Sequence record: SRR2962707_2554
Reading direction: 5' to 3' (one strand)
Length of the DNA: 59,272 nt
Below are positions 17,183 through 37,989 of the stretch, one piece after another (within the stretch, counting starts at the first letter, position 1; every line of letters starts with the position of its first letter). The notes under the pieces were generated by a model. The model was given only the letters and a program-made list of their open reading frames with translations, was not told where the DNA came from and did not search any database. The position numbers and the translations under genes are program-made.

Positions 17183-17256
17183 ACGCCCTTGGCCTCATCC
17201 TGCCGTTACCGCTTCGCTGCCCAGACCTTGGCGCCGACCACTGCCCATAATCTCCG

Positions 17257-17544: not shown

Positions 17545-17836
17545 GAAGATCACCTCGCTTAGGGCAAATGTGGCGCTGACATCAGAAATGCCTGCACCCA
17601 AACCGATCCTTTGAACTTCAATGTAGGCCTGCCCGGCTTGCTGCAATAGCTTACACGTGCGGCACTGCATCGTCGTCAGAAGCCTCACCAAACCTTCGAA
17701 ATCATTGTGCCATTAGTAAGACGCATCCTGGCAATCATGCCATCCTTAGTATCGCCGTCCGGACATCACAACGACGAAGCCACAAAACACAGGTGCCGCA
17801 CCAAGCAAGCTGTTCGCCCAAGCATCGAAGGATGCC

Positions 17837-17852
17837 TTAACCGGCGATTTAC
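17837..17852 (+). promoter_or_regulatory. Near-consensus CtrA box upstream of BTLCP gene
   Basis: TTAA-CCGGCGA-TTTAC (one mismatch). Confidence 0.45.
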
Positions 17853-18047
17853 CAAGACGCGACAATAGAACCGCTGCCCCCTCCAAATATTCCGCCAAAT
17901 CGCCGTTGCCTAAAATTGAAACTATCGGCTTAAACCTACCGTGAGGTCTCTCCCCTAGAACTCATTGCAACGGAGCGTGGCAGGACTGGCTGAAACACCT
18001 GTCCAAGTGACTCCGGCACCATGAGAAGCAACACGGACGGGGAAGTC

Positions 18048-18638: not shown

Positions 18639-18710
18639 AACCGCAAGCAGCGGATAAAAAAGTCCAGCCTCGGCCATCGTGCACTCCCCCTGCGCGATGG
18701 CCGAGGCTTT

Positions 18711-19295: not shown

Positions 19296-19368
19296 GACGA
19301 CACCAATACTGGCCACCCGATTGATAATTCCAGACTGCATCAATCCCATATTATCGGATGACAGACAA

Positions 19369-20151
19369 TCACTTGGAGCTTTCGGGAGATTCAAGCCACA
19401 TTTTGCGTCCGGACTTGTTTGACTTTCTCTCCTCGCCGGCAAGCGTATCGCTGACGATCAGCAAATTGTAGCGCGGAATCTCGGTATGTTCCCTGAATAG
19501 AGAGACCCGGTTGCCATTGTTCTTGATCTCGAACACCTCGAGTTTTCTCACATGCTCCAGTGTTTCGGGATCGGCTCCCCATCCGATTGCAGAGAGAATG
19601 TCGGCAGCTGCATCGACAGCCTTGCGCACGACCCGGTCTGAAATCGAGCCGGAGAGAAAATTGATCTTCAGGCGAACCGACGAAACCTGATCAGGCTGCA
19701 AGCCGCGCACAGAGATGTACAGCGATCCCACGGGGTCTTCGCTGTCCTCCAGCGCAGGCAAAAGCAGTTCATGGCTGCATTCCCAGGCCAGCTCGCCAAG
19801 ATCGGTCGCGGTCCACTCGGCATCGATCAGGCCCCGCTGCTGAAGTTCGCTGCAGATCTGGGCCGGGCTGCGGGTAATCGTCCGCCGAAAGGTCAGTGGA
19901 GGATTTGCCTGGCTCTCCAATAGACGCTCCGGCATGAGGATGATCGTACTCGGTGGCTTTGTCCGGTTTGCCCCTTCCTCGAACGAGTCAGCTTCGCCGC
20001 TGCTGGCGATGGGGTCGAAGCCAAAAGAAACCAGCAAGTTGTTGAGATTCTGCTTGTCATTGGCCATCAGCACAATGGAGCCAATGCCCGAGAATATCAC
20101 AGCCAGCAGCACCAGAAACAGTTTCGTGTTTTTCTCAGCGGTTTCAGCCAT
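19369..20151 (-). CDS. Membrane-anchored periplasmic hypothetical protein (possibly DUF6030-like)
   Basis: 260 aa, single N-terminal TM, WECS and VRLKINF motifs. Confidence 0.7.
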   Translation of the reverse strand: MAETAEKNTKLFLVLLAVIFSGIGSIVLMANDKQNLNNLLVSFGFDPIASSGEADSFEEGANRTKPPSTIILMPERLLESQANPPLTFRRTITRSPAQICSELQQRGLIDAEWTATDLGELAWECSHELLLPALEDSEDPVGSLYISVRGLQPDQVSSVRLKINFLSGSISDRVVRKAVDAAADILSAIGWGADPETLEHVRKLEVFEIKNNGNRVSLFREHTEIPRYNLLIVSDTLAGEERKSNKSGRKMWLESPESSK

Positions 20152-20554
20152 GGCGACCTTGTTCGTGACCTTTTACCAAATTCAACCACCGAATGGCCCG
20201 GAGTTTCCAGACGCCCTCAACGTTTATTGAATATCGTTTGAACGCACCGTGCGACAGTGTCCTGCTTCTCGCATGTTTGCGCTTCAGATTGTAGAACATC
20301 CCGAGACGATCGGACACGTCCCTCAAAGCATCTTTGCGCGCGTAATGGGTTGTGCACCAATTCCGTTTATGTTCAAGCAGGCTTCAACCGCACTGTATCT
20401 CAGTGCCGGAGTAACAATCAGCGGGCTGACTTGCTGGATCGGCAGCATGCGTCGCCCGGCCGATCCAGCCAGAAAAAGTCGTGCAGCGATAGCCATGCGA
20501 TCGGCTCTGCGCTCAAGATCCCTGCCGGAAGACGCTGTTTCAAAGGAATGACGT

Positions 20555-20953
20555 GTGCCACGCAAACAGCGAAGATACAGAAGACTGGCGATTGGAAGCG
20601 TGCTGACGATAATTCTGGCGCTGATCATCGCGGTGCTGACACTGGCGAAAATGCCCTCGGTCGGCCCCTCCGGATCGGACAAGTTCTTTCATGCCCTGGC
20701 CTTTGCCAGCCTGGCCTTTCCGCTAGCTTTGGTGCGACCAAAACTGGCGATCTGGGTGTTTGTGGGTGTCATCGCCTATGGCGCAAGCATTGAGCTGATC
20801 CAGCCCCATTTCGGACGGCACGCGGAGTGGGCCGACCTCATTGCCGACGGGATCGGCGCGGCTGTTGGCGCAATCGCGGCACGGTATCTCGGCTACCGCC
20901 TGCGGCAATCGCGCTGGAAGGACAGCACCCGGGATGTGGTGACAGACCCATAG
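20555..20953 (+). CDS. VanZ-family membrane protein
   Basis: DKFFHALAF, IELIQPHFGR, DLIADGIG. Confidence 0.85.
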   Translation: MPRKQRRYRRLAIGSVLTIILALIIAVLTLAKMPSVGPSGSDKFFHALAFASLAFPLALVRPKLAIWVFVGVIAYGASIELIQPHFGRHAEWADLIADGIGAAVGAIAARYLGYRLRQSRWKDSTRDVVTDP

Positions 20954-21134
20954 ACGCTGAAACCTGTAGATTACCATCGTCGCAGAGTGGTTGTGGAACT
21001 CACAGGATTTTCCGATTTTACGTTGGAATGGCTTGGGCCAGCTCGCTAGAGTATGAGCCACATTACCGACTCTATCCATTCCGGGCTTCGGGTTCCGTCA
21101 CGATGACAGACAATTTTACTGCTGGGCCGTTCTG

Positions 21135-22655
21135 ATGGCGAACAATCACATGTCGATGAGCGGATTTCATCCGGTTTTGTATGCATCCCGCGTGGCCATC
21201 ATCTTGTGGACGTTGTGCCTGCTGGTTGCGGTGTTTTCGTTTGGTACAGTTGACCGCAACGCACAGGCCCTATCGGTCATTCTGTGTGGCCTGGCTGCAG
21301 GCATCGGGTCCGTCTCTCCAGGTTTTCCCGGCGGCGCCGCGGGCCGGTTGCTTGGTTGGTTTGTCTGGATCCTGCTTGCACTGCTGTGTGTCATCGGGTT
21401 TCAGCTGTTGCCGCTGTCCGGACTGGCAGACCCGGCCTGGAGCGAGCTTGCCAAGATAGGGATCTCGAAAACTGGAACAATTTCGGTGGCGCCAGCCGAC
21501 ACAGTCGAGGCGATCTTGCCGCTGACGTTGCCTTGCCTGATGTTTCTGACAACCATCATTCTGCTCCAGAGTGATGAAAGTGCTGTCCGGGTGTTCGGAC
21601 TGGTTGCGATTGCCGGCGGTGTGATTACAGTCCTCACCCTGCTGCAGTTCCTGGTGACGCCAAACATGATCCTGTTGACCGATCTGCCTTTCAAGCGCGA
21701 CGGATTCAGTGCTTTTGTCATCAACAGAAACAATGCCGCGACCTTTCTCGGCGTAACCGCGCTGATGCTCTGCCCGGTCTTTCAAAAACACTATGCGGCG
21801 CTCGAAACAAAGCGAATCGTCAAGTGGATCCTCGACGGCGTCAGGCCTCCCGCGGCGGGCTCCATCTTCAAGACCATCGCCATTGCCATCCTGTTCAGCC
21901 TGACAATTGCAGCGCTGTTTCTCACCAAATCGCGCGGCGGGGTGCTGGCCAGCTTCTGTGGTTTCTTCGTGTTTTTCGTTCTGATGAGCTTTGGCAAGCC
22001 GGCAAACACCAGCAGGAACGCAGGCTTTTCCGGCAGCACGAGCACGTGGTCAAAACCGATTGTCCGGCTTGCCCTGGGTCTTGGCGCACTGGTCGCGGTA
22101 CTCGCGGTATTCGGAGGCAAGGTCTTGCTGCGCGCGGAAGTGCAAGGCACGGAGGATGGCCGGCTCTGCGTCTTGGACGGGTTGATCTCGGCTGCCACCG
22201 GGCACTGGATGACGGGCTCCGGCTTCGGGGCCTTCTCGGCGACGTTCCCGGCCTATCGTGATCCTTATTGCGGCATCTCAGGTTTCTGGGACCGCGCCCA
22301 TAATTCCTATCTCGAAGCCTTCATCGGTCTGGGGGCCGTGGCTCTCCCGTTCATTGTAGTGGTCGTGTTTCTGCTCTTCCGTGCCCTGCTGACAGGACTG
22401 CGGCAGCGCCGCCGTTTCCGGCCCTACCCGGCGGCCGGAATTGCGGTGCTGGTGCTGATACTCGTCCACTCCGCAGTTGATTTCTCCCTCCAGATCCCCG
22501 GCATCGCAGCTTACGTCGCTGTCTGCCTGGCCTTGATAATAACCATTAGCCTCGGCCGCACCTCACAGAAGCCAACCAGATCCCGATCAGGCAATCAGGA
22601 GCCAACACCCGCGCGACGGCGCAGCAGTCACCCGGGAGCTTCGACGTCAGGCTGA
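21135..22655 (+). CDS. O-antigen ligase (Wzy_C) family protein
   Basis: INRNNAA, TKSRGG, GSGFGAF, AHNSYLE, HSAVDFSLQIPG. Confidence 0.88.
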   Translation: MANNHMSMSGFHPVLYASRVAIILWTLCLLVAVFSFGTVDRNAQALSVILCGLAAGIGSVSPGFPGGAAGRLLGWFVWILLALLCVIGFQLLPLSGLADPAWSELAKIGISKTGTISVAPADTVEAILPLTLPCLMFLTTIILLQSDESAVRVFGLVAIAGGVITVLTLLQFLVTPNMILLTDLPFKRDGFSAFVINRNNAATFLGVTALMLCPVFQKHYAALETKRIVKWILDGVRPPAAGSIFKTIAIAILFSLTIAALFLTKSRGGVLASFCGFFVFFVLMSFGKPANTSRNAGFSGSTSTWSKPIVRLALGLGALVAVLAVFGGKVLLRAEVQGTEDGRLCVLDGLISAATGHWMTGSGFGAFSATFPAYRDPYCGISGFWDRAHNSYLEAFIGLGAVALPFIVVVVFLLFRALLTGLRQRRRFRPYPAAGIAVLVLILVHSAVDFSLQIPGIAAYVAVCLALIITISLGRTSQKPTRSRSGNQEPTPARRRSSHPGASTSG

Positions 22656-23325: not shown

Positions 23326-24102
23326 CTAGTATCGCACTGGTTGCTTTGACCTGAAGGCAGCCAACCCCTTGGCGAGATCCGTGCCATCCACATGCAGCGC
23401 AGAACGTTCGAGTTCAGCGGCAATCCGGTATTGGCGATCCGGGGTGCGGGCTCTTTCGCCGGTCAGGAACTTGATGTGCCGGATCGCTTCTGGACTGCGC
23501 AGACTGATATCTCGGGCGATTTCCATCACCCGGTCCATCAGTCGCTCCTTTGGAACGACTTCGTTGATCAGGCCCCAGTCCCTCAGTGTTTCCGCATCGA
23601 CCAGTCCGGCGGTGTAGAAAAGTTGGGCGGCATGCGACGGTGATATCCGTTCACCCAAACGCACGGTAGCGCCTGCAGCAGGAACGACGCCATACCGTGT
23701 GTGCCCATCCCCGATCTTGATGCCTTCGGCTGCAATCAGAATGTCGCAGCAAAGAAGTGTCTCCAGGCCACCCGCGACCGCGGTGCCATTCACGGCCCCG
23801 ATGACCGGCACCGGCAGGTCTTCAAGAAGCTGAAGCACACCCATATTGTACTCAAGGTAGTCAAGCAGCGTCTTCTTGCTGGCATTCAGCGCTTGCTCGA
23901 ATTCGACCAGGTCACCGCCTGCGGAGAAAGCCCGCCCCGCGCCGGTCAAGATCAGCACGCGAAGTCCCGGCAGGGTGGCCAAATGAACAAGCTGGCTTTC
24001 CAGTGACTTCATCATCACCTGCGACATGGCGTTGAGGCTGTCCGGGCGGTTGAGAGTCAGTAAGGCAATACCGTCCTCGAATGTGAGCGTTACCGATTCC
24101 AT
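23326..24102 (-). CDS. Enoyl-CoA hydratase/isomerase family protein
   Basis: LNRPDSLNA, AFSAGGDL, AVNGTAVAGG; start at ATG 24102 just after the upstream stop. Confidence 0.93.
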   Translation of the reverse strand: MESVTLTFEDGIALLTLNRPDSLNAMSQVMMKSLESQLVHLATLPGLRVLILTGAGRAFSAGGDLVEFEQALNASKKTLLDYLEYNMGVLQLLEDLPVPVIGAVNGTAVAGGLETLLCCDILIAAEGIKIGDGHTRYGVVPAAGATVRLGERISPSHAAQLFYTAGLVDAETLRDWGLINEVVPKERLMDRVMEIARDISLRSPEAIRHIKFLTGERARTPDRQYRIAAELERSALHVDGTDLAKGLAAFRSKQPVRY

Positions 24103-24103
24103 C

Positions 24104-25996
24104 CTATTTGTCCTCTTCTGCACGACGTATCACATAGGTCTGCGACAGGGGTTTAAGCGCTGTGTCCAGCTCCGCGACCTGTTCGGCAGCGGCACCGGAG
24201 ACCGTAATGTCCACGACGGTGTGCTTTTGATCATCCAGACGCACGTCGGCGTCTACCTGGACTGCGGGTCCGCAAATTCGCACGACTTCCAGACGAACCT
24301 TTTCCTTGATCGCCAGGTCACGCAGGGTGGGTTTGAAAAGCTTGCCCACCGCCGTCACCGGAAGCGCGTCGATGAGCATGATGCTTTTCGGGCGCGCGGG
24401 CCGCTCATGAACACTGGCTTCCAGGTGCAGCCTAAGACCGACCATATCCAGCTCCGTACCTGCCACCGCGACAACGAACAAAGCCGGGACCTCACCGGCA
24501 TACTGGTCCGGCATGCCCACGGCTGCGCTGATCTCGACACCGGCGAACTGATTGGCAACATCCTCGATGGCGGCCGGGTCGATATTGTGCCCGCTGCGCA
24601 CGATCAGATCCTTCTCCCGCCCGGTGAGAAAGAGCCGGGCATCCGGGGTGAGATAGCCAACGTCTCCCGTGGTCAGCCATCCATCAGCATCCAGCGTTCC
24701 CTCGTTGTGGGCAGGATCGAGATATCCGGGAAAGACCTGTGGCCCCCGCACCTGAACGATGCCGCTCACATTGGGTTGGCATACCTCTGGTATGGAAGAA
24801 TGCAGACGAAGAATTCGGGTCTCGGAATAGGGCGCGCGAAATCCGACGCTGCCATCAATTGGCGTTCCATGTCCGGGATTGAAGGCGATCGCCGCCGCCG
24901 TCTCCGTCATTCCGTAAGTCTCGTAAAGCCTGATGCCGGTTGTCGCCGTAAAACGGCTGCCAACGGCCTTCGGCAACACCGCCCCGCCAGTGACAGCCAT
25001 CCGCACGCTGGAAATATCCGTTCCCGGCTTCCAGGAATTGGTCACGGCGCCGATGGAGGTGGGAACGCCCCCTACGACCGTCGCCTTGTAATGCTCGACA
25101 ATGTCCCAGTACCGCTCGACGACCTGCGGAAGCCGCAAGCCGTAAGGCGATGGCACGATGATGTGTCCGCCCGCCGCAAGCACCGACAGTCCCACGGTCA
25201 TGGTTCCGCCGACATGGAAGAACGGAAAGCCGTTGAAGACAACATCACCCTCATCATAGCCGAAGACCTGGGCGAACCCGAACGCGGCATGGATGTGGTT
25301 TCCGTGCGTCAACCGAACCAGTTTCGGCCGACCAGTGGTGCCCCCGGTGTGAAACAATGCGCAGACGGCGTCGCGATCTGCCGTCGGCTTGAAGTCGAGC
25401 CCATTGCTCGTGCAGCCGTCGATGGCGCCTTCGAGGCGAACATATCCGCGACGTCCTTCGGTGTCGCCACCGATAACGATGACATGCCGCAGCGACTGTA
25501 CCGCCTCGAGCGCCCCGAGCGCCTTGGACCAGCACATCTCATCGATCTGCCGGGCCGGGACGACCAGTATTGTTGCCTGCTCGGCGTTGAGCAGATCGAA
25601 GATCGCTTGCTGGTTCAGCAGATAATTGAGCGAACTGGCGGCACCGGCAACCTGGGCACCCCAGAGCAGAGGCGGCAGTTCGGCAAGCGTCGGTGCCAGA
25701 AACGCAGCCACGCCCTGACCGGGAGCCAGTCCCAGCCGGTGAAACATGTTGGCCGCCTGCGTGATCCCCGACAGCAATTCGCGGTGGGTGAGAACCGCCG
25801 CCACATCAGTCGGATCCTCGGACCGCAATACCGTCAGAGCTTTCGCCTCGCCGGCATGCTGCGCCGTGGCCCGAAACAGGTCGTAGATGTTGTTCGCCGT
25901 CACCAACTCATCATAGGGATGGCTTTCAATGGCAATGATGTCTTCGATGGTCCGGACCTGAGCCAAGGGCCGTGTCGTCTTGAGGTGCCGGTCCAT
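24104..25996 (-). CDS. Acyl-CoA synthetase (AMP-binding)
   Basis: HTGGTTGRPK, YGMTET, TGDVG, GREKDLIVRSGHNI, TAVGK. Confidence 0.94.
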   Translation of the reverse strand: MDRHLKTTRPLAQVRTIEDIIAIESHPYDELVTANNIYDLFRATAQHAGEAKALTVLRSEDPTDVAAVLTHRELLSGITQAANMFHRLGLAPGQGVAAFLAPTLAELPPLLWGAQVAGAASSLNYLLNQQAIFDLLNAEQATILVVPARQIDEMCWSKALGALEAVQSLRHVIVIGGDTEGRRGYVRLEGAIDGCTSNGLDFKPTADRDAVCALFHTGGTTGRPKLVRLTHGNHIHAAFGFAQVFGYDEGDVVFNGFPFFHVGGTMTVGLSVLAAGGHIIVPSPYGLRLPQVVERYWDIVEHYKATVVGGVPTSIGAVTNSWKPGTDISSVRMAVTGGAVLPKAVGSRFTATTGIRLYETYGMTETAAAIAFNPGHGTPIDGSVGFRAPYSETRILRLHSSIPEVCQPNVSGIVQVRGPQVFPGYLDPAHNEGTLDADGWLTTGDVGYLTPDARLFLTGREKDLIVRSGHNIDPAAIEDVANQFAGVEISAAVGMPDQYAGEVPALFVVAVAGTELDMVGLRLHLEASVHERPARPKSIMLIDALPVTAVGKLFKPTLRDLAIKEKVRLEVVRICGPAVQVDADVRLDDQKHTVVDITVSGAAAEQVAELDTALKPLSQTYVIRRAEEDK

Positions 25997-27492
25997 CAGT
26001 GCACCGCCGCATACATGATGGTGTGTTCGTCGGCCTTGTGGCCTGCAAACTCTTCAACAACCCGGCCCTGTCTGCACACCAGAATGCGGTCTGAAAGATG
26101 CAGGATTTCCGGCAGATAGGACGAGATCACCATGACCGCGATTCCCTCATCGGCAAGCCGGTTGATGAGCTGGTGGATCTCGGCAATGGCGCCGACGTCA
26201 ACGCCGCGGGTCGGTTCATCGAAGATGACGAGCTTGGGTTTCTGGACCAGAGCTTTCGCCACCACCACCTTCTGCTGGTTGCCGCCTGAAAGCTCGATCA
26301 CCCGCGCGTCACTGTTGATCGCCTTGACGTTCAACGTTCCGGTCCATTCCGTGGCAATCGCCTTCATCTCTTTCATGCTGATGACAGGCGATTTTGTCTG
26401 CCCTCCGGCAACAGCGGCGAGATAGATGTTCTCGGCGATCGACATGGTCTCGAAAAACCCCTCGATCTTGCGGTCCTCGGTGACATAGATGATGCCATCG
26501 AGAACAGCCGGACGCGGGACCCGGTAGCGCACCGAGCGGCCGTTCAGACGCACCTGCCCGCCGTGAAACGTGTCCCGTTTCAAGACCCCGGCAACAACCT
26601 TCGCCGCCTCGGTCCGGCCCGAGCCTATCAGGCCGAACACTCCGGCGATCTGTCCTGCAAACACCGAGAACGAGGTGTTACGCACCGCCTTGCCCATCGA
26701 CAGGTTTTGCACGCTTAGAACTTTTTCCCGGGCCCGGCGCACCTTGCGGTCCTTGCCGGATCCGTAGAGTTCATCGGAAAGCGAGCGCCCCACCATCGCC
26801 TGAACAATCTTTTCCCGGTTAAAATTCGAGGTTTCGTCGGTCACGACGTGCTGCCCGTCCCGCATTACCGTAATGCGATCCGAGATCTGCAGCGCCTCTT
26901 CGAGAGCATGCGAAATGAAGATGATCGAAACGCCACGATCACGCAGCCGCTCCACCAGCGAAAAGAACTGGTGCTTTTCCTCAGGCGTCAGCGTCGCCGT
27001 CGGTTCGTCGAAGATGATCACTTGCGCATTGTGGTGCACGGCGCGGGCGATCTCGACCATCTGCTTTTGCCCAGCCCCCAGGCTGGAGACCAGCGCCGTC
27101 GGATCGACATGGAAATTCAGCGATTGCAGAAATTGCTGTCCGGCGATGTAGATGCCCCGGAGGCGGTGGAAATGCTTGTCGTCTGCGAGATAAAGATTCT
27201 GCGCAACTGTGAGTGACGGCACCAGGCTGGTCTCCTGATAGACCATGGCGATACCGCGGTTGAGCGCTTCGAGTGGCGACCCCATCTCGACCTTCTGTCC
27301 GTCCATCCAGATTTCACCGGACGTCGGCTCCACAACGCCCGCCAGCATCTTGGTCAGGGTCGACTTGCCCGCACCGTTTTCACCGAGCAGGGCATGCACT
27401 TCGCCGCGTTCGAGCGTAAAGCTGACATCCTTGACCGCTGGCACACCGCGATATTCCTTGGTGCCATTCCTGAGTTCCAGTATCGGCGTCAT
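25996..27492 (-). CDS. Sugar-type (CUT2) ABC transporter ATP-binding protein
   Basis: GENGAGKST, DEPT, LSGGNQQK, DEPTRGVDVG; tandem NBDs. Confidence 0.95.
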   Translation of the reverse strand: MTPILELRNGTKEYRGVPAVKDVSFTLERGEVHALLGENGAGKSTLTKMLAGVVEPTSGEIWMDGQKVEMGSPLEALNRGIAMVYQETSLVPSLTVAQNLYLADDKHFHRLRGIYIAGQQFLQSLNFHVDPTALVSSLGAGQKQMVEIARAVHHNAQVIIFDEPTATLTPEEKHQFFSLVERLRDRGVSIIFISHALEEALQISDRITVMRDGQHVVTDETSNFNREKIVQAMVGRSLSDELYGSGKDRKVRRAREKVLSVQNLSMGKAVRNTSFSVFAGQIAGVFGLIGSGRTEAAKVVAGVLKRDTFHGGQVRLNGRSVRYRVPRPAVLDGIIYVTEDRKIEGFFETMSIAENIYLAAVAGGQTKSPVISMKEMKAIATEWTGTLNVKAINSDARVIELSGGNQQKVVVAKALVQKPKLVIFDEPTRGVDVGAIAEIHQLINRLADEGIAVMVISSYLPEILHLSDRILVCRQGRVVEEFAGHKADEHTIMYAAVH

Positions 27493-28577
27493 TCCTCACC
27501 TCCGATCTCTTCACTGGCAATGGAAACCACGACCCCGTCGCCACGCGCGGCAGCGAACACGCGCCCCTGATGCTCGACCACGCCGGTCACGCCATGGGTT
27601 GCCCCGTCGGCGCGGCTGTGAAGACTGAGCCGTGGCTGAAAGCCATCATCCAGCTTGACGCACAGTCCCGCGGACATGGTTGGAGACCAGGGCTTGAGCA
27701 GTCCCAACTGCTTGACGCCGCCTCCCTGCATCGCCTCGTAAAAACTGCGCCCGGAACGCAATTTCGGAGCGATCCAGAAATCCTGCGGCACTTCGGCAAT
27801 CATGCGCCGCCGATAGGCGGGTTCGCGCAGCACAAATTCAACCAATTGACTGCGTGGCGCGAACATCGCCAGCCAGAAACTGTCTTCCGCAGCCGAAATC
27901 CTGCCGGGATAACCGGGCAGTTCCGCGTAAAGCACCTCCGGCGTACCAGCGCCGGACTGGTTGATGCGCACAAGACGATGTTTCCACGCCTCCGCATAAA
28001 CCAGCGTGTCGCCCTCAATCACGATCCCTGCCGGATAGGCGAGACCTCCGGCAATCTGCGTCACCGTGCCGGTTTCAAGTTCAACCCGCCAGATGCTGCC
28101 CGATGCGTTGCGCTGTAACAAATCTAGTTGCCAATTGTCTGGCCCATTGCTGGCCGAGCCATTGGTAATAAAAAGCATACTGCCTGATGCGGCCATCGCC
28201 GTGATGCAGCGCATATCCGGGGATGCCGCATATCGGCGTCCGTCGAATGTGCCGCCATCAATTAGGATTTCGCCGGATAACAGCGCCACGACCAGCCCGT
28301 CGGGACCGATCGGTGCCAGACAGGCGATCTTGTCCTCATAGGTTCCGCGCTTGTCCCATTTCCCGCCCTTGGAGAGGGAATAAACACTGCCTCCCGCCGA
28401 GGCCATCAACGTACCGGATATTTCAGCCAGACAATCGACGTCGGCAAGTTCAAACCGTTCAACCGCCTCATCTAGCATGCGGTTTGGACACAGCGCACCG
28501 TCCAGCGGCGGTACGGTCACAGCCGCCTCGCCACGTCCGAGCAGATTGTCCCAGGTACGGATTAGCCCGCTGATCAT
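27489..28577 (-). CDS. Strictosidine-synthase-like beta-propeller protein (metal ligands degenerate)
   Basis: GLAYPAG, AEAWKHRL, LPGYPGRI, FWLA; start ATG 28577 overlapping the upstream stop, with GGAGG RBS. Confidence 0.82.
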   Translation of the reverse strand: MISGLIRTWDNLLGRGEAAVTVPPLDGALCPNRMLDEAVERFELADVDCLAEISGTLMASAGGSVYSLSKGGKWDKRGTYEDKIACLAPIGPDGLVVALLSGEILIDGGTFDGRRYAASPDMRCITAMAASGSMLFITNGSASNGPDNWQLDLLQRNASGSIWRVELETGTVTQIAGGLAYPAGIVIEGDTLVYAEAWKHRLVRINQSGAGTPEVLYAELPGYPGRISAAEDSFWLAMFAPRSQLVEFVLREPAYRRRMIAEVPQDFWIAPKLRSGRSFYEAMQGGGVKQLGLLKPWSPTMSAGLCVKLDDGFQPRLSLHSRADGATHGVTGVVEHQGRVFAAARGDGVVVSIASEEIGGEE

Positions 28578-30688
28578 GATTGCCTCCAATAGGAATCCTG
28601 GCCCGTCCACCCGGTATCAACCCCGGCCAGCTTGAGCCGCCCGATGCGGTTGTTGGAAATCCCGCCGATATACAGATGCCCCTTGTGCTCACGCATCGAG
28701 GTGATTGAGGGATGGTTCACCCCGGCCTTGTCCCAGAGCGTTTCCAGCACCGTGCCGTTTTCGTCGAAACGGATGATGCAGCCGGTATTGATACCGGGAT
28801 AGAGCCATTCATCCGGAGCTATCCGCCGGGCCATGCGCTTCCTAAAACCGGGCATGCGCAGCGCCAGATCGAGCGAGGGCGTCCGCATGCCGACCAGGGC
28901 CAGCCAATAGGTGCCGTCCGAGGCCCGGTTGATATTGTCGGGAAAGCCCGGCAGGTCCGGGATGACCGGTTCAACCTGACCCGTCTTGGGTCCGGCGAAA
29001 TAATAACGGCTAACCCGGCAGCCCCAGGTTTCGGCAAACAGGAAGGATTGCCCGTCATGGGTGATGCAGATGCCATTGGGGAAGACCAGATCGCGCAACA
29101 GCGTCCGCGTCTCGCCGCTTTTCGGATCATAGCAGATGATCCGGCCGTTGCCGCGCGATTCAAGGCAGTCGACCGGCCAGTCGTGCATCTCGTAACGGAC
29201 CGTCGCCTCGCTGAAAAACACCCGCCCGTCCGGCGCGATATCAAGATCGTCCGCCAACCGCAGCCGGGAATCATCAATCACCGACAACCAGTACCGATTG
29301 GTCTCGTCGGTCAGCTTGGTGATGGTGCGATCCTTGTCGATGCTGTAAAGCCCCATGCCGCCGACACAGCAGACCAGATTGCCATTCTTTGAAAACGCCA
29401 TGCCAAGCGGCCGTCCGCCGATATGGGCATAGACTTCCTGCTTTTTGTAATCGGGGGCGAAAAACCGGATAATGTCGCCGGTCCTGTTGCCGGTATAAAT
29501 ATGGTCATCCGCATCAAGGATCACGTCTTCTGGCCCGTCCACCGCACCAAGCCCGATCAGCTCGACACCGTGCAGCCGGTCATTGAGCGCATAGGGCGAT
29601 CCCGCTTCGGTCGAGGGCACCGGCGGCAAGTCCGCGAGCGTCGGCGACACGTAAACCTTGGACAGAAGCTTGTGGCGGTTCTTGACCCAGCGAACGTCGA
29701 TGGCCACGGCGAGCAGAAGAACAAACCCGAGCAGCAGCGAATTCGCGCCGCTGGTGATGCCCAAACGCACCAGGCTGTTGATCATCAGCATCACGGTGAT
29801 CGAACCGATGATCGCTTTCGCAGCCGATCCCCGGCCACCGCCAAGACTGTTGCCACCAAGGACTGCGGCGGTCAGGGCGGCAACTTCGAGCCCGATTCCT
29901 GTATCGGCACCGGCGCCGCCCAGACGCGAGGCGAAAAGAAACCCCGCCAGCGCGCTCAGCGTCCCCGACACCACATAGGTCATGCAGATCGTGCGGCGTA
30001 CCTTGACGCCGACATTATGCGCTGACCGGCGCGAGCCTCCGGTCGCAAGAATGTGCCAGCCGACCCGTGTCCGGCTCAGCACCACATGCAGGATTACCGC
30101 GACAATGGCGGCGACCACGACGCTGACCGGCACCCCGACCAATGAGCCTTCGCCGAAAAAATACCAAGCGTCGGAATCTATGAAGGAGCCCGCGATCCGG
30201 ACGGAGTATTTCATCAACAGCATGTCGACGATGGCGCGCACGATGATGAGCGTTACCAGCGTCGTCAGAAAGGCGCGCAGCCTGAGATAACCAACCAGCA
30301 GTCCGTTGACCAAGCCCACGGTTGCACCGCAGGCAAGTGTCCCAATCACGACCAGCGGCAGCGGCAGCTCGGCTACGCCCAGCAGCGCAAGGGCGACTAT
30401 ATTGCCAAGCGCAAAGGTTGAGCCGACACTCAGATCGATACCTCCGGCAACCATGACAATCATCAGCGCCAGAACGAGAAGGCTGAACTCCCCCCACTGC
30501 CGGGTGAAGTTGCCGATGCTTGCTGCGCCAAAGAAGTCAGGGATGAGCGACCCGAACACGGCAATGACGGCCAGCAGGATGAAAAGCGGGATGGCATTGT
30601 CTATCCAGCGCTTGGTGAGGATCTCACCCAGCAAATGGTCAGGCACGGCTCGGTAACGCCAGCGCACGATCGCGTCTAACAGGGGCAT
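28574..30688 (-). CDS. Fusion: RbsC-type ABC permease + strictosidine-synthase-like/SMP-30 lactonase domain
   Basis: N-terminal GGIDLSVG...AAVLGGNSLGGGRG permease; C-terminal GPEDV, GRPLG, LADDLD, FPNG, GFPDNI propeller, in one continuous ORF. Confidence 0.9.
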   Translation of the reverse strand: MPLLDAIVRWRYRAVPDHLLGEILTKRWIDNAIPLFILLAVIAVFGSLIPDFFGAASIGNFTRQWGEFSLLVLALMIVMVAGGIDLSVGSTFALGNIVALALLGVAELPLPLVVIGTLACGATVGLVNGLLVGYLRLRAFLTTLVTLIIVRAIVDMLLMKYSVRIAGSFIDSDAWYFFGEGSLVGVPVSVVVAAIVAVILHVVLSRTRVGWHILATGGSRRSAHNVGVKVRRTICMTYVVSGTLSALAGFLFASRLGGAGADTGIGLEVAALTAAVLGGNSLGGGRGSAAKAIIGSITVMLMINSLVRLGITSGANSLLLGFVLLLAVAIDVRWVKNRHKLLSKVYVSPTLADLPPVPSTEAGSPYALNDRLHGVELIGLGAVDGPEDVILDADDHIYTGNRTGDIIRFFAPDYKKQEVYAHIGGRPLGMAFSKNGNLVCCVGGMGLYSIDKDRTITKLTDETNRYWLSVIDDSRLRLADDLDIAPDGRVFFSEATVRYEMHDWPVDCLESRGNGRIICYDPKSGETRTLLRDLVFPNGICITHDGQSFLFAETWGCRVSRYYFAGPKTGQVEPVIPDLPGFPDNINRASDGTYWLALVGMRTPSLDLALRMPGFRKRMARRIAPDEWLYPGINTGCIIRFDENGTVLETLWDKAGVNHPSITSMREHKGHLYIGGISNNRIGRLKLAGVDTGWTGQDSYWRQS

Positions 30689-30719
30689 GCAGGTTCGCTC
30701 CGGTATGGGATTGCCGTCA

Positions 30720-30751
30720 GGCACGGGCCACCACCATGGGCGGCCCGTGCC
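30720..30751 (-). terminator. GC-rich hairpin after the SBP gene (attenuating/stabilising)
   Basis: GGCACGGGCC-12nt-GGCCCGTGCC perfect 10-bp stem; no clear U tract. Confidence 0.5.
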
Positions 30752-30772
30752 GGATTAGCGGCAGAGGTTTTT

Positions 30773-31762
30773 CTAGTTGAGGCTCCAGCAGGACGATGCC
30801 TTCATCGTGTCCTTGGTCAGCGACGTCAGCGGCGAGAACAACGTTGTTTTCATCGAGCCTGGCGTCGTCCCGAGCTGCAAGAGCTGAACAATCATGTTGG
30901 AGATGTCACGGGCCTGACCCGGAACGTCCCAGCTGATCACTTCGGAGTAGGTGCCATTGGCCAGGCCGGAACAGGCAGCTTCATTTCCGCCGCCCTGGGT
31001 CAGCAAATAGACGTCCTTGCCAGACTCCTGAATTGCCGCACCCGTACCAACGTCCATCACGTCCCAGAAACCCGCAAAGGCGCACAGGTCCGGATGCTGC
31101 TGAAGCACCGTCGCCGCGATGTTTCGCGCCTTTGTGGCGTCCCAGTCAGCGGCCTGGTTGGACACCACTTCCATATCAGGGTTCTGGGCAAGCACATTGT
31201 TGATGCCCTTCATCTGATAGGCACTCGCAGCAGCGGTCAGAACACCCTGGATGATCGCTACCTTGCCGTTGCCACCATTCTTGGGCGAGCACTTGGCGAC
31301 CAACCGGCTGGCGACCTTTTCGCCCATGCCGACATAGTCCACCCCGACAAAGGCGTCCGAAGTATAGCTGGACCGCATATTCACCTGAATCACGTGGATT
31401 CCGGCGTCTTCGGCTTTCTTGAGCAGGCGGGCATAGGACTGCACGTCCGGGTTATGCACCACCATCACATCGGGCTTTTCCGAAATAAGCGACGTGATAG
31501 CCTGCGCGCCGGCGTCCGTGCTCCAGTTCGGATCACGAATTTCAAACTTGATGCCGAGCGGCTCAAGCGCGGTTCGGAGGCCAGCAGCCCAGCCTTCGGT
31601 CAGATCAAACCCCATTGCCTGCGGAATGAAGGCCACGGTCTTGCCCTGGAGCGATTCATAAATGGGTGCGCGGGTCGGGTCGTCGATACCCTCCTGTGCC
31701 AGTGCGCCGCCGCCACACAGCGCGATGGCTGATGCACATGCAAGTGCCTTGATAAATCTCAT
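30773..31762 (-). CDS. Sugar-type ABC transporter substrate-binding protein
   Basis: Signal peptide, RbsB-like fold motifs (QAADWDATKA, LQQHPDL); GGGAGG RBS. Confidence 0.92.
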   Translation of the reverse strand: MRFIKALACASAIALCGGGALAQEGIDDPTRAPIYESLQGKTVAFIPQAMGFDLTEGWAAGLRTALEPLGIKFEIRDPNWSTDAGAQAITSLISEKPDVMVVHNPDVQSYARLLKKAEDAGIHVIQVNMRSSYTSDAFVGVDYVGMGEKVASRLVAKCSPKNGGNGKVAIIQGVLTAAASAYQMKGINNVLAQNPDMEVVSNQAADWDATKARNIAATVLQQHPDLCAFAGFWDVMDVGTGAAIQESGKDVYLLTQGGGNEAACSGLANGTYSEVISWDVPGQARDISNMIVQLLQLGTTPGSMKTTLFSPLTSLTKDTMKASSCWSLN

Positions 31763-31789
31763 TTGTTTCTCCTCCCAGTGAGAATGACT

Positions 31790-32764
31790 TCAGATATCCC
31801 CCTGCTGAGCGGTTTGCTCATCGCGGGGATTAAGGATCGTGTCGATCACGATTGCTAAAAGCAGGATGACGCCCTTGATGACGTTCTGGATGGTGTACTG
31901 GATGTTCATGATCGTCATTCCGTTGAGCAGAATGCCGATAAGCAGCGTGCCGACGATGACATTGCGGATGCCGCCACGCCCGCCCGAGAGGCCAATGCCT
32001 CCAAGCACGACAACCAGGATCACGTCATAAACGTATGTCGATGTGGCGACGCGCGTGTTCATGCTGGCAACCGATGCAGCGGTTACAATTCCGGCGACAA
32101 AGCCGATCAGCGCCGACAAGGCATATTGCAGCACGATGATCGGACGGGCGGGAACACCGGTTATACGGGCGACCTCGAGATTGTCCCCGACAGCGCGCAG
32201 ATAGCGCCCCGATTTGGTGTAGCGCAAAAACAGATGGCCAAAGAGACAGACAGCCGCGAACAGGAAGATCGGCACCGGAACGCCGAACAGCGATCCCTGC
32301 CCCAGCCACAACAGATAGCGCGCATCATCAGGCAGATAGACAACCGTCAGATCATAGAGAAAATACTGACCGAAACCGAAAATCAGCGTGCCCATGGCTA
32401 GCGTCGCAAAGATTGCCGGAATTTCGACATAGGCGATGAGGGTGCCGGTGATCATTCCACCGATGAGGCTGAAACCGAGGCCGAAGGCCACCGCCTGTGG
32501 CAACGGCATGCCACCCGCCGCAAGCTGCAGGGCCCAGGCGACAGAGACCGCCATCAGCGATACCAGCGACAGGTCAATGCCGCGGCCGATGACCACCAGC
32601 CCCATGGCGACCCCGAGAATGCCGAGGATCGAGACGCTTCGAACCAGGTTGAGGAGATTGCTTGACGTCAGGAAACCAGGAAGCGAAATCGCGAAGACCG
32701 CGCAAAGAAAGACCGCCAGTCCAAAGACGATTTGTTCTTGCGTTAGCCGCCCAAAGATAGTCAT
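31790..32764 (-). CDS. Sugar-type ABC transporter permease
   Basis: GRGIDLS, IPAIFATL, AVGDN, VVLGGIGLSGGRGG; start at ATG 32764 after GGGAGGGG. Confidence 0.92.
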   Translation of the reverse strand: MTIFGRLTQEQIVFGLAVFLCAVFAISLPGFLTSSNLLNLVRSVSILGILGVAMGLVVIGRGIDLSLVSLMAVSVAWALQLAAGGMPLPQAVAFGLGFSLIGGMITGTLIAYVEIPAIFATLAMGTLIFGFGQYFLYDLTVVYLPDDARYLLWLGQGSLFGVPVPIFLFAAVCLFGHLFLRYTKSGRYLRAVGDNLEVARITGVPARPIIVLQYALSALIGFVAGIVTAASVASMNTRVATSTYVYDVILVVVLGGIGLSGGRGGIRNVIVGTLLIGILLNGMTIMNIQYTIQNVIKGVILLLAIVIDTILNPRDEQTAQQGDI

Positions 32765-32842
32765 GCCGGTCCCCCTCCCAACAGTGGCCATCACGACATG
32801 ACGGCCACATCGGCAAACCATACAGAGGCCGGCTGAGGCGTA

Positions 32843-32879
32843 CTTTTCTGGCAATGCAGAGTTCTTGCTTGAGAGCGCA
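32843..32879 (-). promoter_or_regulatory. Putative tandem AraC/FeaR-type binding sites
   Basis: TGCGCTCTCAAGCAAG and TGCATTGCCAGAAAAG, 21 bp apart, upstream of a TATGGT -10-like hexamer. Confidence 0.4.
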
Positions 32880-33018
32880 AACCGCACATCGCAATGCCCG
32901 ATAGCGGGACAATCATCTATTTGATATACAAACTCACACGACAGTGAGGATTGCGGGGTTTGAGGAGGCCCTGCAATCGCACAAGCACTGCGCGCGCGAC
33001 CCATGAAGGGAGGAAATC

Positions 33019-33963
33019 ATGGAGTACATTTTCAATACGGACGACATAGAGCCCGCAAAGCGTTTCGCCGCCTGGCGCGAAGCCATTTGCGACTTCTACG
33101 TTCCCGTGGACGTTCAGGCCACTCGCCCGGAAACCTACAAGGGCTTTGTCCGTGAAGCCCAGTTCGGGGACTTGGGATTAACCGACATCCTGGTGTCGGA
33201 ACAACGGATCAAACGGAACGCGCAGCACATCGCCCGGCTCAACAAGGATTGTTACTACGTACAGATCCTGCACCACGGCGGCATCAACGTTATCCAGAGA
33301 GGCGAAGAATTCGTCTCCAATCCGGCGCGCAGCGCACTGTTTTGCGCCACCGAACAATATGAACTTCAATGCATCGGCGACGTCCGTTCCTTCTATCTTG
33401 AAATCCCGCGCGACGACTTTGCCCAGCGCTTCTCGAAAGATCAGGTGCCGATTTCGCTCCCCATCAACAGCACGCAGGGTCTTGGCCGCATCACCACGGA
33501 GTTCTGCGCGATGCTCGCCACCGAAGGGTCAAAACTCGAAGAAGGGGTCAAGGCGGATCTCGGCCACCAATTGATGGACCTGCTGGCCTTGACGGTCCTT
33601 TCCGGTGCGAGCGACATGCCGGAATCCGAAGGCTCCGTGCAAAATGCCCGACTCCGATCTGCCCAGATCTGGATCGAAGCCCATATCAATGATCCTGATC
33701 TGTCTCTCCAAAAAATCGCCCATGCCAACAACATGTCTCTGCGGTATCTGCACCTGCTGTTCAAGCAGTGCGACATGTCGGTGTCGGAGTGGCTATGGAA
33801 CAGACGTCTTCAACTTTGCCACGACCAGATCGCGAAAGGCGACGGTCGTTCGATCACCTCGATCGCCTTCAACCACGGCTTCAACAGCTCAGCACACTTC
33901 AGCACAGCCTTCCGCCGCAAATACGGCTTCTCCCCCCGCGAAACCGTGCGGAAACATCAGTAG
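33019..33963 (+). CDS. AraC-family regulator (FeaR-like)
   Basis: RFAAWRE N-terminus; DPDLS..IA...SLRYLHLLF, SITSIAFNHGFNSSAHFSTAFRRKYG. Confidence 0.94.
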   Translation: MEYIFNTDDIEPAKRFAAWREAICDFYVPVDVQATRPETYKGFVREAQFGDLGLTDILVSEQRIKRNAQHIARLNKDCYYVQILHHGGINVIQRGEEFVSNPARSALFCATEQYELQCIGDVRSFYLEIPRDDFAQRFSKDQVPISLPINSTQGLGRITTEFCAMLATEGSKLEEGVKADLGHQLMDLLALTVLSGASDMPESEGSVQNARLRSAQIWIEAHINDPDLSLQKIAHANNMSLRYLHLLFKQCDMSVSEWLWNRRLQLCHDQIAKGDGRSITSIAFNHGFNSSAHFSTAFRRKYGFSPRETVRKHQ

Positions 33964-34102: not shown

Positions 34103-34447
34103 ATGATCATATTCATTTTCGCGGGCGGCTTGATCGGAGCAGCGGGTGTTGCATTGTCAGCCTATGGTGCACATGCAGGCGGCGGCAATGTCACCACAGC
34201 AGCGCAATTCCTGCTGTTTCACGCACCCCTTTTTGTAGCGCTGGGCCTTGCTGAAAATCCCAGCCGGATCCGCAGCGCCGGTGCTGGCCTTCTGGGCCTT
34301 GGGCTGGCGCTGTTTTGCGGCGATCTGCTGATGCGCCATTTTGCCGACACGCGACTATTTTCAATGGCTGCGCCTTCCGGAGGTACGGCAATGATCGGCG
34401 GCTGGCTGGTGATTGCGGTGTCCGGATTATTGAAGAAATTCCGGTAA
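34103..34447 (+). CDS. DUF423 (YgdD/TMEM256)-like membrane protein
   Basis: GVALSAYGAH, FLLFHA, LFCGDL, APSGG...GGW. Confidence 0.82.
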   Translation: MIIFIFAGGLIGAAGVALSAYGAHAGGGNVTTAAQFLLFHAPLFVALGLAENPSRIRSAGAGLLGLGLALFCGDLLMRHFADTRLFSMAAPSGGTAMIGGWLVIAVSGLLKKFR

Positions 34448-34655
34448 GTACTGATGCACCGCTCAGGGACAGCTCATTATTTGCTGATTGCAAGGCCGCT
34501 GACTTCGTTGCCGTCATCGATACCTTGCAATGAACGGATTGAGGGCGTCCGCAGGCAAGCATTTCGTTCAAAAGGTGATCCCGATCGCCGCCTGAATGCC
34601 GAAATGAAACGCCAGACGATCTCGGCATAAGCAAGGTTGGCTTTGTGGACAACAC

Positions 34656-35358
34656 GGTATTGCCAAGTTGTTTGTCATTGGATGCAAGGCGGCGGGGATG
34701 AAAGATGGTGTTTATCTGATCGTGGGCTAACAAGAGGCGTTGGGCTTGACGAGGCGATTTGAACCGCCCCATGATCTTCTCTCGCTTCCTGGTCTGTCGG
34801 TGTGCGTTTTCAATTCTGTTATTCATGCCCTTGTGGGCTCGATGATCAGCATCCGGGGCCAGATTTTGTATCGGCTTTATGTAGCTGCGCAGCTTGTCCG
34901 TCACGATGACACGCGGTTCACCGAATTGCTTGACCAGTCTGGAGAAAAACGCTTGGCAGCCTTGGTGTTGCGGCGAGCTTGAACCAGAATGTCGAGTACG
35001 TCACCATCGGCGTCAATGGCCCGCCAGAGCCAGAATTTCTTTCCACTGATCGTGATGACGGCCTCATCCATATGCCACTTATCGTTCGGCTTGGGCCGGT
35101 CTCTGCGAATGCAGTCGGCAAAATGTCGGCCAAAGCGGTTGATCCATAGACGAACCGTTTCCCTGCTCACGATAACACCGCGTTCAGCAAGAAGGTCTTC
35201 CACATCGGCCGTGCTCAGAGCAAACCGATGATAGGCCCAGACCGCGTAGGCGACAACTTCACGCGGAAAACGAAACCCCTTCAGACGGGGGAAAGTGCTC
35301 GGCAATCTCATGTCGTCTCGATAACCGAAACGCCGGGGTCAAACAACTTGGCAATACC
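34656..35358 (-). mobile_element. IS6-family element, defective
   Basis: Perfect 19-bp terminal inverted repeats GGTATTGCCAAGTTGTTTG (34656-34674 and 35340-35358) around an IS6 transposase. Confidence 0.92.
34680..35311 (-). pseudogene. IS6 transposase, frameshifted and 3'-truncated
   Basis: GFRFPREVV...WHMDE...LWRAID...KAAKRF, frameshift in the A5 run at 34945-34949, then TDKLRSY...NNRIENAH; C-terminus missing before the IR. Confidence 0.88.
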
Positions 35359-36213: not shown

Positions 36214-36888
36214 TTACTCGGTCGCTGCTAGGGACGCTTTTCCCACGTTGAAGCCGTATTTTCTGCCCAGCCCAAGTGCGGAGACCATTCCGAGCGCCTC
36301 CTGCAACGCCGCAGGCGAAAGCGGCTTGAGCGGCTTGCGGAGCGGCCCTGAAGGCAAGCCGACCGCCCGCATCAGGGTCTTGACGGCGACCGGATTGATC
36401 GCGGAATAGGCGAAGTGCAGGACCGGCAGGTTGTCCAGCCAGACGGCGCGGTGGTTGAACGCGTCGTCACCGGTCTCCCAGGGCTTGGAGATCACAGCCA
36501 TTTCCTGCGGAATGAGGTTGCCTGTCATGTTGGCGGTGCCGTGACCGCCCAGCGCCATCATCGGCACGACGAGTCCGAGATTGGGCGAGCAGCAGCACAT
36601 GATCGCCATATCGGGCTTGGCTGCGCAGACCTGCGCCACCTGGCCGACGCGCGTGGTCGATTCCTTCAGCACAACCATGTTCGGGTGCTTGGCCAGTTTC
36701 AGCAGATCAGTCCAGTGCAGATCGGTCTTCACCCGCGGCGGGTTGTTGTAAAATCCCATGGCCAGGTCGGTGCTGTCGAGCACTTCCATCGCATAGTCGG
36801 TGATGGCGTCATTGTCGGCGCAGATATAGGCGGGTGCGGCAAGGATCGCGCCGTCCGCGCCTTCGGCCTTGGCATAGCGCGCATAGTC
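36214..36888 (-). pseudogene. 5'-truncated dihydrodipicolinate synthase (DapA/NanA) family gene
   Basis: AKAEGADGAILAAPAY, FYNNP, LKES, NPVAVK; in-frame TGA at 36892-36894 and no N-terminal GSTGE region. Confidence 0.8.
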
Positions 36889-37107: not shown

Positions 37108-37689
37108 TCAGGGGCCGCTCACAGCGATGAGCACGCAGCTGTTGTCCACAAGACGCCTGACCTGGTGGCGCAGAGGACCAGGGAACTGCACGGAATCCCC
37201 CTTGTGAAGAACAAGATTGTCATCGGGAAAGATTATCTCGACCTGGCCTTCAACCACATAAAGCAGCTCCTCGCCGCGGTGCTCGGCATCAGGCTCGTCG
37301 CTCAGAGTATCGGGCGGAAACATCAGAAACACTTCTAGGCCGGAGCTGCTGTCACTCTGCGTGAGCAGCCGCATATGATAATTCCCGTCATCGGCAGTCA
37401 GGTCGTTGCGGTCATCTGCACGGGTCACAAAAAGCAGCTCATGGTCTTCCGCAGCCCCGAACAATTGCGCCGCAGAAACGCCAAGAACTGTCGAAATACG
37501 CAAGATGATTGCGACGGAGGGCACCTTCAACCCGCGCTCAACGCGGGACAGATATCCCTTGTCAATCGACGCGGCGAGCGCCAGCTGCGACAGCGACAAG
37601 GCTTTTTCCGTGCGTAGCGCGCGGATCGCCCTGCCCAGGCTCACACCCGCTGACAAGTTCAGTTTTCGAGCACCCTCATGCTGCACCAT
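37108..37689 (-). CDS. XRE-family HTH + cupin transcriptional regulator
   Basis: IRALR...LSQLA...YLSRVERG..PS HTH; HRGEELLYVVEG...GDSVQF cupin. Confidence 0.92.
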   Translation of the reverse strand: MVQHEGARKLNLSAGVSLGRAIRALRTEKALSLSQLALAASIDKGYLSRVERGLKVPSVAIILRISTVLGVSAAQLFGAAEDHELLFVTRADDRNDLTADDGNYHMRLLTQSDSSSGLEVFLMFPPDTLSDEPDAEHRGEELLYVVEGQVEIIFPDDNLVLHKGDSVQFPGPLRHQVRRLVDNSCVLIAVSGP

Positions 37690-37885: not shown

Positions 37886-37989
37886 AAGCAGTGCTTGTCA
37901 GTCGCCCAGCAACTTCTTCCGGGCGTCGATTGATTGTCGTTTAGGCAACGTTGTCTAATAATCAAGCAAACAACAAAGGGAATGGCTTC

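Follow-up and report, generated by a model that had tools for sequence, protein, structure and literature searches.

The 59,272-nt stretch from sequence record SRR2962707_2554 (the window, whose positions serve as coordinates throughout) carries, at positions 23326-33963, an ATP-binding cassette (ABC) importer locus in which one permease is joined, in a single gene, to a six-bladed propeller of the strictosidine-synthase-like type. An open reading frame (ORF) map combined with Pfam and NCBIfam searches placed seven tightly packed genes on the minus strand, from ∼32791 to 23326, and an AraC-family gene diverging from them. All of the elements described in an earlier reading made from the letters alone (the sequence-only reading) were found by these means where it had placed them. 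The neighbours it named were correct, but its gene list omitted the 362-aa free-propeller gene (27489-28577) that lies between the fusion and the ATPase. The features of the unit are as follows.

33019..33963, plus strand: AraC-family regulator with AraC_binding_2 and HTH_18, divergent from the operon.
32792..33018, no strand: divergent intergenic region, putatively the promoter region, taken from the ORF map and translation; its extent hangs on the uncertain start of permease 1.
31790..32791, minus strand: permease 1 (BPD_transp_2, RbsC/AraH-like by Pfam and NCBIfam), without a propeller.
30773..31762, minus strand: periplasmic solute-binding protein (SBP) of the CUT2 type, Peripla_BP_4, beginning with a signal-like sequence.
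28574..30688, minus strand: permease 2-propeller fusion, 704 aa from Met13, stop codon included.
29708..30511, minus strand: residues 72-339 of the 716-aa ORF, the BPD_transp_2 permease part of the fusion; ten helices are predicted, with both termini inside.
28577..29596, minus strand: six-bladed strictosidine-synthase-like propeller domain of the fusion (SSL_N, Str_synth, SGL).
27489..28577, minus strand: free second propeller, 362 aa, paralogous to the fused domain and with a substitution at every ligand position.
25996..27492, minus strand: ABC ATPase with two nucleotide-binding domains (two ABC_tran stretches), AraG/XylG/RbsA-like.
24104..25996, minus strand: acyl-CoA synthetase (AMP-binding and AMP-binding_C), clade-specific; nearest NCBIfam model PRK07529, below cut-off.
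23326..24123, minus strand: crotonase-family enoyl-CoA hydratase/isomerase, clade-specific.

The permease-1 ORF is open to 33004, but homologue matches begin near internal Met codons, one of which is the likely start. The best NCBIfam match of the AraC-family gene was FeaR, at 127 bits, under the 199-bit cut-off. An ATGA overlap joins the fusion stop to the free-propeller start, a second joins the free-propeller stop to the ATPase start, and GGAGG lies a few bases 5' of each, so that translational coupling would fit both junctions. The operon has the make-up of a CUT2 importer, with BPD_transp_2 permeases, a Peripla_BP_4 SBP and a two-ABC_tran ATPase all above the Pfam cut-offs; equivalence to the ribose, arabinose, xylose, allose or autoinducer 2 (AI-2) systems was not found, since every NCBIfam equivalog score lay far below its cut-off.

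By its longest start, the fusion gene is a single continuous ORF of 716 aa (28574-30724, minus strand), although the real start is probably Met13 (30688), because the homologues are 704 aa long. Four Pfam matches, each exceeding its curated cut-off, account for most of the 716-aa ORF: BPD_transp_2 at 72-339 (E 1.2e-33), SSL_N at 377-421 (E 5.6e-15, 55.4 bits against a cut-off of 18.9), SGL at 422-612 (E 2.3e-14) and Str_synth at 492-578 (E 2.7e-21, 75.9 bits against a cut-off of 25). A protein database search returned 4341 matches to the fusion at E<=1e-3 among 8000 scored, and the best 120 of these were 690-712 aa long, 76-95% identical, and in every case (120/120) contained BPD_transp_2, SSL_N, Str_synth and SGL. 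When species-representative genomes (one per species) were scanned, the fusion was encoded in 76 of 102 candidate stretches. These numbers bear out the claim of the sequence-only reading that an RbsC-type permease and a strictosidine-synthase-like propeller share one ORF; that reading had named an assembly artefact missing from homologues as grounds for giving up its proposal, and an artefact or a chance ORF is ruled out by the 4341 matching proteins and the 76 genome stretches.

The carriers in the genome scan were Alpha- and Betaproteobacteria, including Hyphomicrobiales, Rhodobacterales and Rhodospirillales-type genomes, Bradyrhizobium, Variovorax, Comamonas and Bordetella hinzii, and among annotated plasmids the fusion was present in Pantoea, Paraburkholderia, Shinella, Salipiger, Celeribacter and Sulfitobacter. 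In the plasmid collection searched, no record from Sinorhizobium has the fusion in full. The design is thus conserved in two proteobacterial classes and on one gammaproteobacterial plasmid, with 52-95% identity in almost all examples and one outlier at 43%. Cultivable carriers include Phaeobacter, Roseibium, Hoeflea, Bradyrhizobium, Variovorax and Pantoea, which makes the system accessible to experiment. Public labels for the protein are generic ('SMP-30/gluconolactonase/LRE family protein' or 'ABC transporter permease').

Gene order was examined by tblastn of the window proteins against the 76 fusion loci, counting only loci with enough flanking sequence (for the free propeller, at least 600 nt downstream). 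The free propeller lay directly 3' of the fusion in 72 of 73 loci and was followed by the ATPase in 70 of 71, while the SBP gene lay directly upstream of the fusion in all 72 loci with room, preceded by permease 1 in 70 of 70. The sole exception for the free propeller was a locus (L061) in which the fusion match is broken, yet both the propeller and the ATPase are present. In this locus, from Pseudophaeobacter leonis (L061:8013-10123), the ORF stops at 9422 and the propeller continues in another frame, which may reflect a pseudogene or a sequencing error. The invariant unit is therefore five genes in fixed order: permease 1, SBP, fusion, free propeller and ATPase. Wherever the match spans the protein, the propeller is fused and not free; three more loci are cut at a contig end.

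The fused domain was modelled with AlphaFold2 (predicted local distance difference test, pLDDT, 85.7; predicted template-modelling score 0.89). Foldseek matched the model best to strictosidine synthases (E 2e-20, TM 0.81) and rice TGW6, followed by the lactonase RPA3624, PON1, xylonolactonase, luciferin-regenerating enzyme, SMP30, DFPase and Drp35. In a sequence-profile search of the PDB, the best match was again TGW6 (8kg3), which hydrolyses the glucose ester of indole-3-acetic acid (IAA), at E 1.4e-29. By fold and by its Str_synth and SSL_N matches, the fused domain belongs to the strictosidine-synthase-like subgroup of the six-bladed propeller (N6P) superfamily. A profile built from it was run against a library clustered at 50% identity and matched 5824 representatives at E<=1e-3. 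Of seven short stand-alone relatives retrieved from the top 150 of this search, six have a hydrophobic N-terminal signal or anchor; these six (P0164, P0170, P0171, P0172, P0179 and P0181) are ∼355-365 aa long and keep both the ligand motifs and the helical insert. Propellers of the fused type also occur in other combinations: P0193, P0215 and P0251 (863-875 aa) have ∼530 N-terminal residues without a Pfam match, P0157 (937 aa) has two Str_synth propellers and a PAN domain, and in P0227 (625 aa) the propeller is joined to a polysaccharide deacetylase.

The motifs GPED, LADD, FPNG and FPDN, listed in the sequence-only reading as metal-ligand motifs, are present at residues 397, 490, 548 and 594 of the 716-aa ORF. 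Passages of the TGW6 study present E59, N167, N226 and N272 of that protein as counterparts of the calcium ligands in DFPase, Drp35 and gluconolactonase (PMC10958001). By alignment, these four positions map to E399, D492, N550 and N597, which, together with D493, N526 and D596, are invariant in 43 fused domains down to 45% identity. Hence the ligand set of the superfamily hydrolases is kept, as had been claimed. Since about one quarter of all columns are invariant in this alignment, the joint invariance of at least five of these positions is unlikely to arise by chance but is not decisive. Most 'strictosidine synthase-like' sequences are described, in a review of the superfamily (PMC4215206), as retaining the four metal ligands and hence as expected hydrolases rather than synthases. 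Strictosidine synthase itself has PGG and PGN where the fused domain has PNG and PDN, and a strictosidine synthase proper (a Pictet-Spenglerase) was ruled out because the fused domain keeps the ligand positions that are lost in the synthase. Judged by these residues, the fused domain has the four-ligand pattern of N6P metal-dependent hydrolases and is a probable lactone- or ester-splitting enzyme.

By hhalign, the free propeller and the fused domain are clearly paralogous (probability 99.95%, E 2e-38, 18% identity over 306 columns). The free-propeller model (pLDDT 87.0) matched strictosidine synthase in Foldseek at E 1e-13, although its Str_synth match, at 17.5 bits, is below cut-off. At the four ligand positions it has Cys or a variable residue, Thr, Ala or a variable residue, and Arg. 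Because all of the ligand residues are replaced, it looks like a pseudo-enzyme, lacking the pattern that would place it among the metal-dependent hydrolases. Its residues 12-33 hold a motif with the consensus LGRGxAAVTVPPLDGALKPN that is near-invariant in 57 sequences otherwise 25-68% identical to the window copy. As candidates for natural fusions of the free propeller to other parts, a search gave only three longer proteins (864, 750 and 730 aa; two singletons and one seven-member cluster on a 2.9-kb contig); they were set aside as evidence, since they may be gene-calling errors.

Complex prediction paired the fused and free propellers with an ipSAE score of 0.84 (0.84, 0.85 and 0.84 in separate runs), compared with 0.15 for the best of three controls; in calibration, 51 of 78 solved complexes reached this mark, as did 2 of 108 mismatched pairs. 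The runs share at least 95% of their contacts, with partner pLDDT of at least 89. The predicted interface is formed by the helical inserts of both paralogues (fused-domain residues 259-293; free-propeller residues 243-299 and 16-20), and on the free propeller it is enriched in conserved columns (17 of 38 compared with 57 of 324 elsewhere, p=3e-4). Residues 16-20, which contact the fused domain in the prediction, belong to the N-terminal motif, and the rest of that motif may dock on another subunit. The modelling supports a heterodimer of the two propellers.

On which side of the membrane the propellers lie was judged from the distribution of charge and hydrophobic segments. The window fusion has ten hydrophobic segments, with a basic coupling loop at residues 205-233 (704-aa numbering) that contains 7 Lys/Arg and is followed by four helices; after the last permease helix comes RWVKNRHKLLSK. 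Averaged over 72 homologues, Lys plus Arg counts were 2.8, 2.0, 6.0, 1.0 and 4.0 in the five predicted inside segments (sum 15.8) and 1.0, 0.3, 1.0 and 0.0 in the four predicted outside loops (sum 2.3). No helix-like hydrophobic stretch was found beyond residue 338 of the fusion in these 72 proteins, and the first 45 residues of the free propeller were never signal-like in the homologues examined. The positive-inside counts, the lack of a further helix and the lack of a signal on the free propeller indicate that both propellers are most likely cytoplasmic. The sequence-only reading had put the fused domain on this side and would have been contradicted by a periplasmic one, which the sequence evidence disfavours.

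The genes that flank the core differ by clade. The AraC-family gene, the synthetase and the crotonase surround the core in 11 of 12 close-clade loci (76-81% identity), the twelfth lying on a contig of only 4.3 kb, and the AraC gene is divergent in all 11 (61-68% identity). None of the 64 other loci has the three genes in the same form. The proposal that the importer feeds a coenzyme A (CoA) pathway therefore holds for one clade but, in that form, for none of the other loci. In the 64 other loci, genes on the same strand after the ATPase included a zinc-dependent alcohol dehydrogenase (45 loci), an aldehyde dehydrogenase (41), a LysR regulator (40), a family-III CoA-transferase (31), an MmgE/PrpD protein (26), an HpcH/CitE-like lyase (11) and a MaoC-like dehydratase (9). 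A short-chain dehydrogenase/reductase matching a glucose 1-dehydrogenase model is present in 9 of the 64. Plasmid contexts were also diverse. The Pantoea plasmid has a tetrose/erythrulose-like set (dihydroxyacetone-kinase-like, triose-phosphate-isomerase-family, TIM-barrel and SorC-type genes) as well as two aldehyde dehydrogenases and an arabinonolactone oxidase; the Sulfitobacter plasmid has AMP-binding enzymes, an acyl-CoA dehydrogenase and a crotonase; the Paraburkholderia plasmid has CoA enzymes; and the Celeribacter plasmid has a Rieske oxygenase. These contexts would fit an acid or hydroxy-acid product, that is, a carboxylate, often with a free hydroxyl. In the close clade, including the window, no dehydrogenase is present within the self-contained eight-gene unit.

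In at least 9 of the 11 close loci the synthetase and crotonase form a single ORF of 884-901 aa, as judged by ORF length; the junction was read in five (L001:12705-15368, L005:8205-10907, L006:12690-15362, L011:12678-15329 and L061:12688-15390). The two are separate in L063 and in the window (23326-25996, minus strand), where they overlap by 20 nt in different frames, a split that could be natural or could reflect a frameshift in the linker. At E 1e-41 to 1e-37, the best PDB matches of the synthetase (feruloyl-CoA synthetase, luciferases and 4-coumarate ligases) are not close enough to name a substrate from. Assignment from the SBP was likewise dropped, since its 54 PDB matches, all weak (best E 7e-17), bind differing ligands (ribose, allose, rhamnose, galactofuranose and AI-2). 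Matches to a RipC-like lyase and a mesaconate CoA-transferase-like protein were seen among the neighbours, all under cut-off; alpha-methylene-gamma-butyrolactone feeding an itaconate-type route is an idea only, without direct support.

Outside the unit, the flanks are unrelated to the transporter, with a Wzy_C-type membrane protein on one side and two IS240-type transposase fragments on the other. The latter are adjacent ORFs of 237 and 136 aa (34191-35311, minus strand) right beside the AraC gene, each a partial DDE_Tnp_IS240 match, and look like a broken IS6/IS240-type element; because this element adjoins the AraC gene, the eight-gene unit may sit at a mobile or rearranged site. The envelope and polysaccharide genes at 14864-22655 are not conserved beside the transporter in any locus. 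The flanking features are:

14864-16312: Bac_transf sugar transferase.
18021-18638: BTLCP cysteine peptidase.
19369-20151: DUF6030 protein.
21135-22655: Wzy_C O-antigen-ligase-like membrane protein.
36214-36789, minus strand: 191-aa ORF with a partial DHDPS match (positions 121-282 of the 289-position profile only), probably a truncated gene.
37108-37689: cupin-helix-turn-helix regulator.
37951-39042: DctP binding protein of a tripartite ATP-independent periplasmic (TRAP) transporter.

For this arrangement of an importer with a putative hydrolase at its exit, the reading that we favour is import-coupled hydrolysis, in which a neutral lactone or ester is taken up and released as the hydroxy-acid; we hold it about as likely to be right as wrong. 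The SBP would hand over a neutral, sugar-like lactone or ester, the ATPase would drive it through the permease pair, and the fused propeller would hydrolyse it at the permease exit to a hydroxy-acid, or to an acid and an alcohol, unable to return. The catalytically dead paralogue would be a structural partner, pairing with the fused propeller through the matching helical inserts. In this clade the CoA ligase and crotonase would then process the product under the control of the divergent AraC regulator, and in most other clades alcohol dehydrogenase, aldehyde dehydrogenase and CoA-transferase would do so. A stronger version, which we put forward tentatively and consider rather unlikely, is that the active propeller and its dead paralogue are bound to each other in an obligatory heterodimer docked under the two permeases, hydrolysis being part of the transport cycle. 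Group translocation, known from the sugar phosphotransferase system and from vectorial acylation, would then have a third kind, by which thousands of proteobacteria would scavenge neutral lactones or esters at low concentration. Substituted gamma-butyrolactones, esters of sugars or acyl-sugars, or even lactone signals such as acyl-homoserine lactones would be candidate substrates, as ideas only.

Several observations weigh against import-coupled hydrolysis. The same core stands beside catabolic genes as dissimilar as the Pantoea tetrose/erythrulose-like set and the Celeribacter Rieske oxygenase, and its sequence is kept while the neighbours vary between clades. The propeller, moreover, is ∼62-65% identical between clades and the binding protein 42-50%, and because the propeller is the more conserved, a generic role fits at least as well as a substrate-specific enzyme. 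Passages of the TGW6 study report that calcium was not observed in the structure (PMC10958001). No solved homologue of the fusion permease was found by phmmer, so the topology rests on sequence. The complex score is the model's own confidence, obtained without our own alignments being fed in, the test was also passed in calibration by 7 of 44 pairs of neighbouring genes drawn blindly, and the fused-domain interface is conserved no more than the remainder of the domain (18 of 37 compared with 162 of 325). An alternative is that the propeller pair is a non-catalytic module, either a cytoplasmic sensor that gates the transporter or a brace for the permease heterodimer, with a site that binds without turnover; trans-inhibition by the C-terminal domains of MetN, ModC and MalK provides a model for the sensor. 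The invariant core among varying catabolic neighbours, the degree of propeller conservation, the calcium-free TGW6 structure and the fact that one of the two propellers is plainly non-catalytic all favour such a module, but the known regulatory domains of ABC importers are on the ATPase rather than the permease, and the four ligand positions are invariant, with D493, N526 and D596, across the 43 sequences. Members of the subgroup that keep the ligands are also expected to be hydrolases, according to the relevant portion of PMC4215206, and we consider a module without catalysis unlikely.

We are similarly inclined to doubt, and think improbable, that the propeller is an active pathway enzyme uncoupled from transport, fused for stoichiometry or co-localisation and perhaps acting on a later intermediate such as an intracellular lactone made by a dehydrogenase. 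The zinc-dependent alcohol dehydrogenase in 45 of the 64 loci outside the close clade, most of these loci having a dehydrogenase right after the ATPase, and the glucose 1-dehydrogenase-like protein in 9 of the 64 would suit such a pathway, as sugar-lactone lactonases of the propeller fold normally act after a dehydrogenase; against it stand the close clade, whose eight-gene unit lacks a dehydrogenase, and the fusion of the propeller in every locus with a full-length match (apart from the three cut at a contig end). Also weighing against hydrolysis at the cytoplasmic exit is that the nearest stand-alone relatives act outside the cytoplasm, as their N-terminal signals or anchors indicate, so that the same subfamily would apparently work outside the cytoplasm when free and inside when fused. 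This raises the further alternative of a periplasmic propeller that, like its exported relatives (six of the seven short ones), acts on the substrate before or during binding. We consider this very unlikely, because the charges in 72 homologues follow a positive-inside pattern that suits a cytoplasmic C-terminus, four helices (an even number) come after the basic coupling loop, no additional helix lies ahead of the propeller and the predicted partner has no signal sequence.

To our knowledge, the accepted picture of an ABC importer is that of a pump, with separate soluble enzymes processing the substrate once it is inside. If the fused enzyme hydrolyses the molecule as it enters, uptake and the start of catabolism would be one physical event, giving a new answer to the problem of irreversible uptake and a new enzyme/pseudo-enzyme pair. 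Neutral lactones or esters would then be a class of environmental substrates for which the literature searched describes no bacterial uptake systems. The sequence-only reading knew of no characterised transporter-hydrolase system of this kind, and our full-text literature searches, whose coverage leaves out most subscription journals, likewise returned no paper on a propeller-permease fusion importer. This widespread design seems not to have been studied before.

Among known systems, the closest in overall composition are the CUT2 importers (RbsABC, AraFGH, XylFGH and LsrACDB; TC 3.A.1.2). They share the Peripla_BP_4 SBP, the BPD_transp_2 permeases and the ∼500-aa ATPase with two nucleotide-binding domains, and the top NCBIfam matches here were ribose, arabinose, xylose and allose components. 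However, the equivalog cut-offs are not reached (160 compared with 398 bits for RbsC, 471 compared with 689 for AraG), one permease here carries a 360-aa propeller, most likely cytoplasmic, a fifth gene encodes a second propeller, and the genes alongside code for CoA or dehydrogenase enzymes, not for sugar kinases or isomerases. For the fused domain, TGW6 (PDB 8kg3) is the best solved sequence match and a top fold match, with GPE, PNG and PDN at the ligand positions, but it is a plant protein, ∼25% identical, with Asn in place of Asp492, no transporter attached and no helical insert of the kind that forms the predicted dimer interface. The N6P lactonases and esterases (SMP30/gluconolactonase, PON1, Drp35, DFPase, xylonolactonase and RPA3624) have the same fold (Foldseek E 1e-12 to 5e-14) and the four-ligand pattern, but they are 13-17% identical and are soluble or secreted single proteins, and we know of none that is part of a transporter or has a dead paralogue. 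A functional parallel is LsrACDB with LsrK, a CUT2 importer for AI-2 in which a cytoplasmic enzyme of the same locus makes the substrate impermeant; the NCBIfam matches here include the permeases, ATPase and binding protein of the Lsr system. Trapping in that system is by phosphorylation and is carried out by a separate soluble kinase, whereas here the putative hydrolase is covalently joined to the permease.

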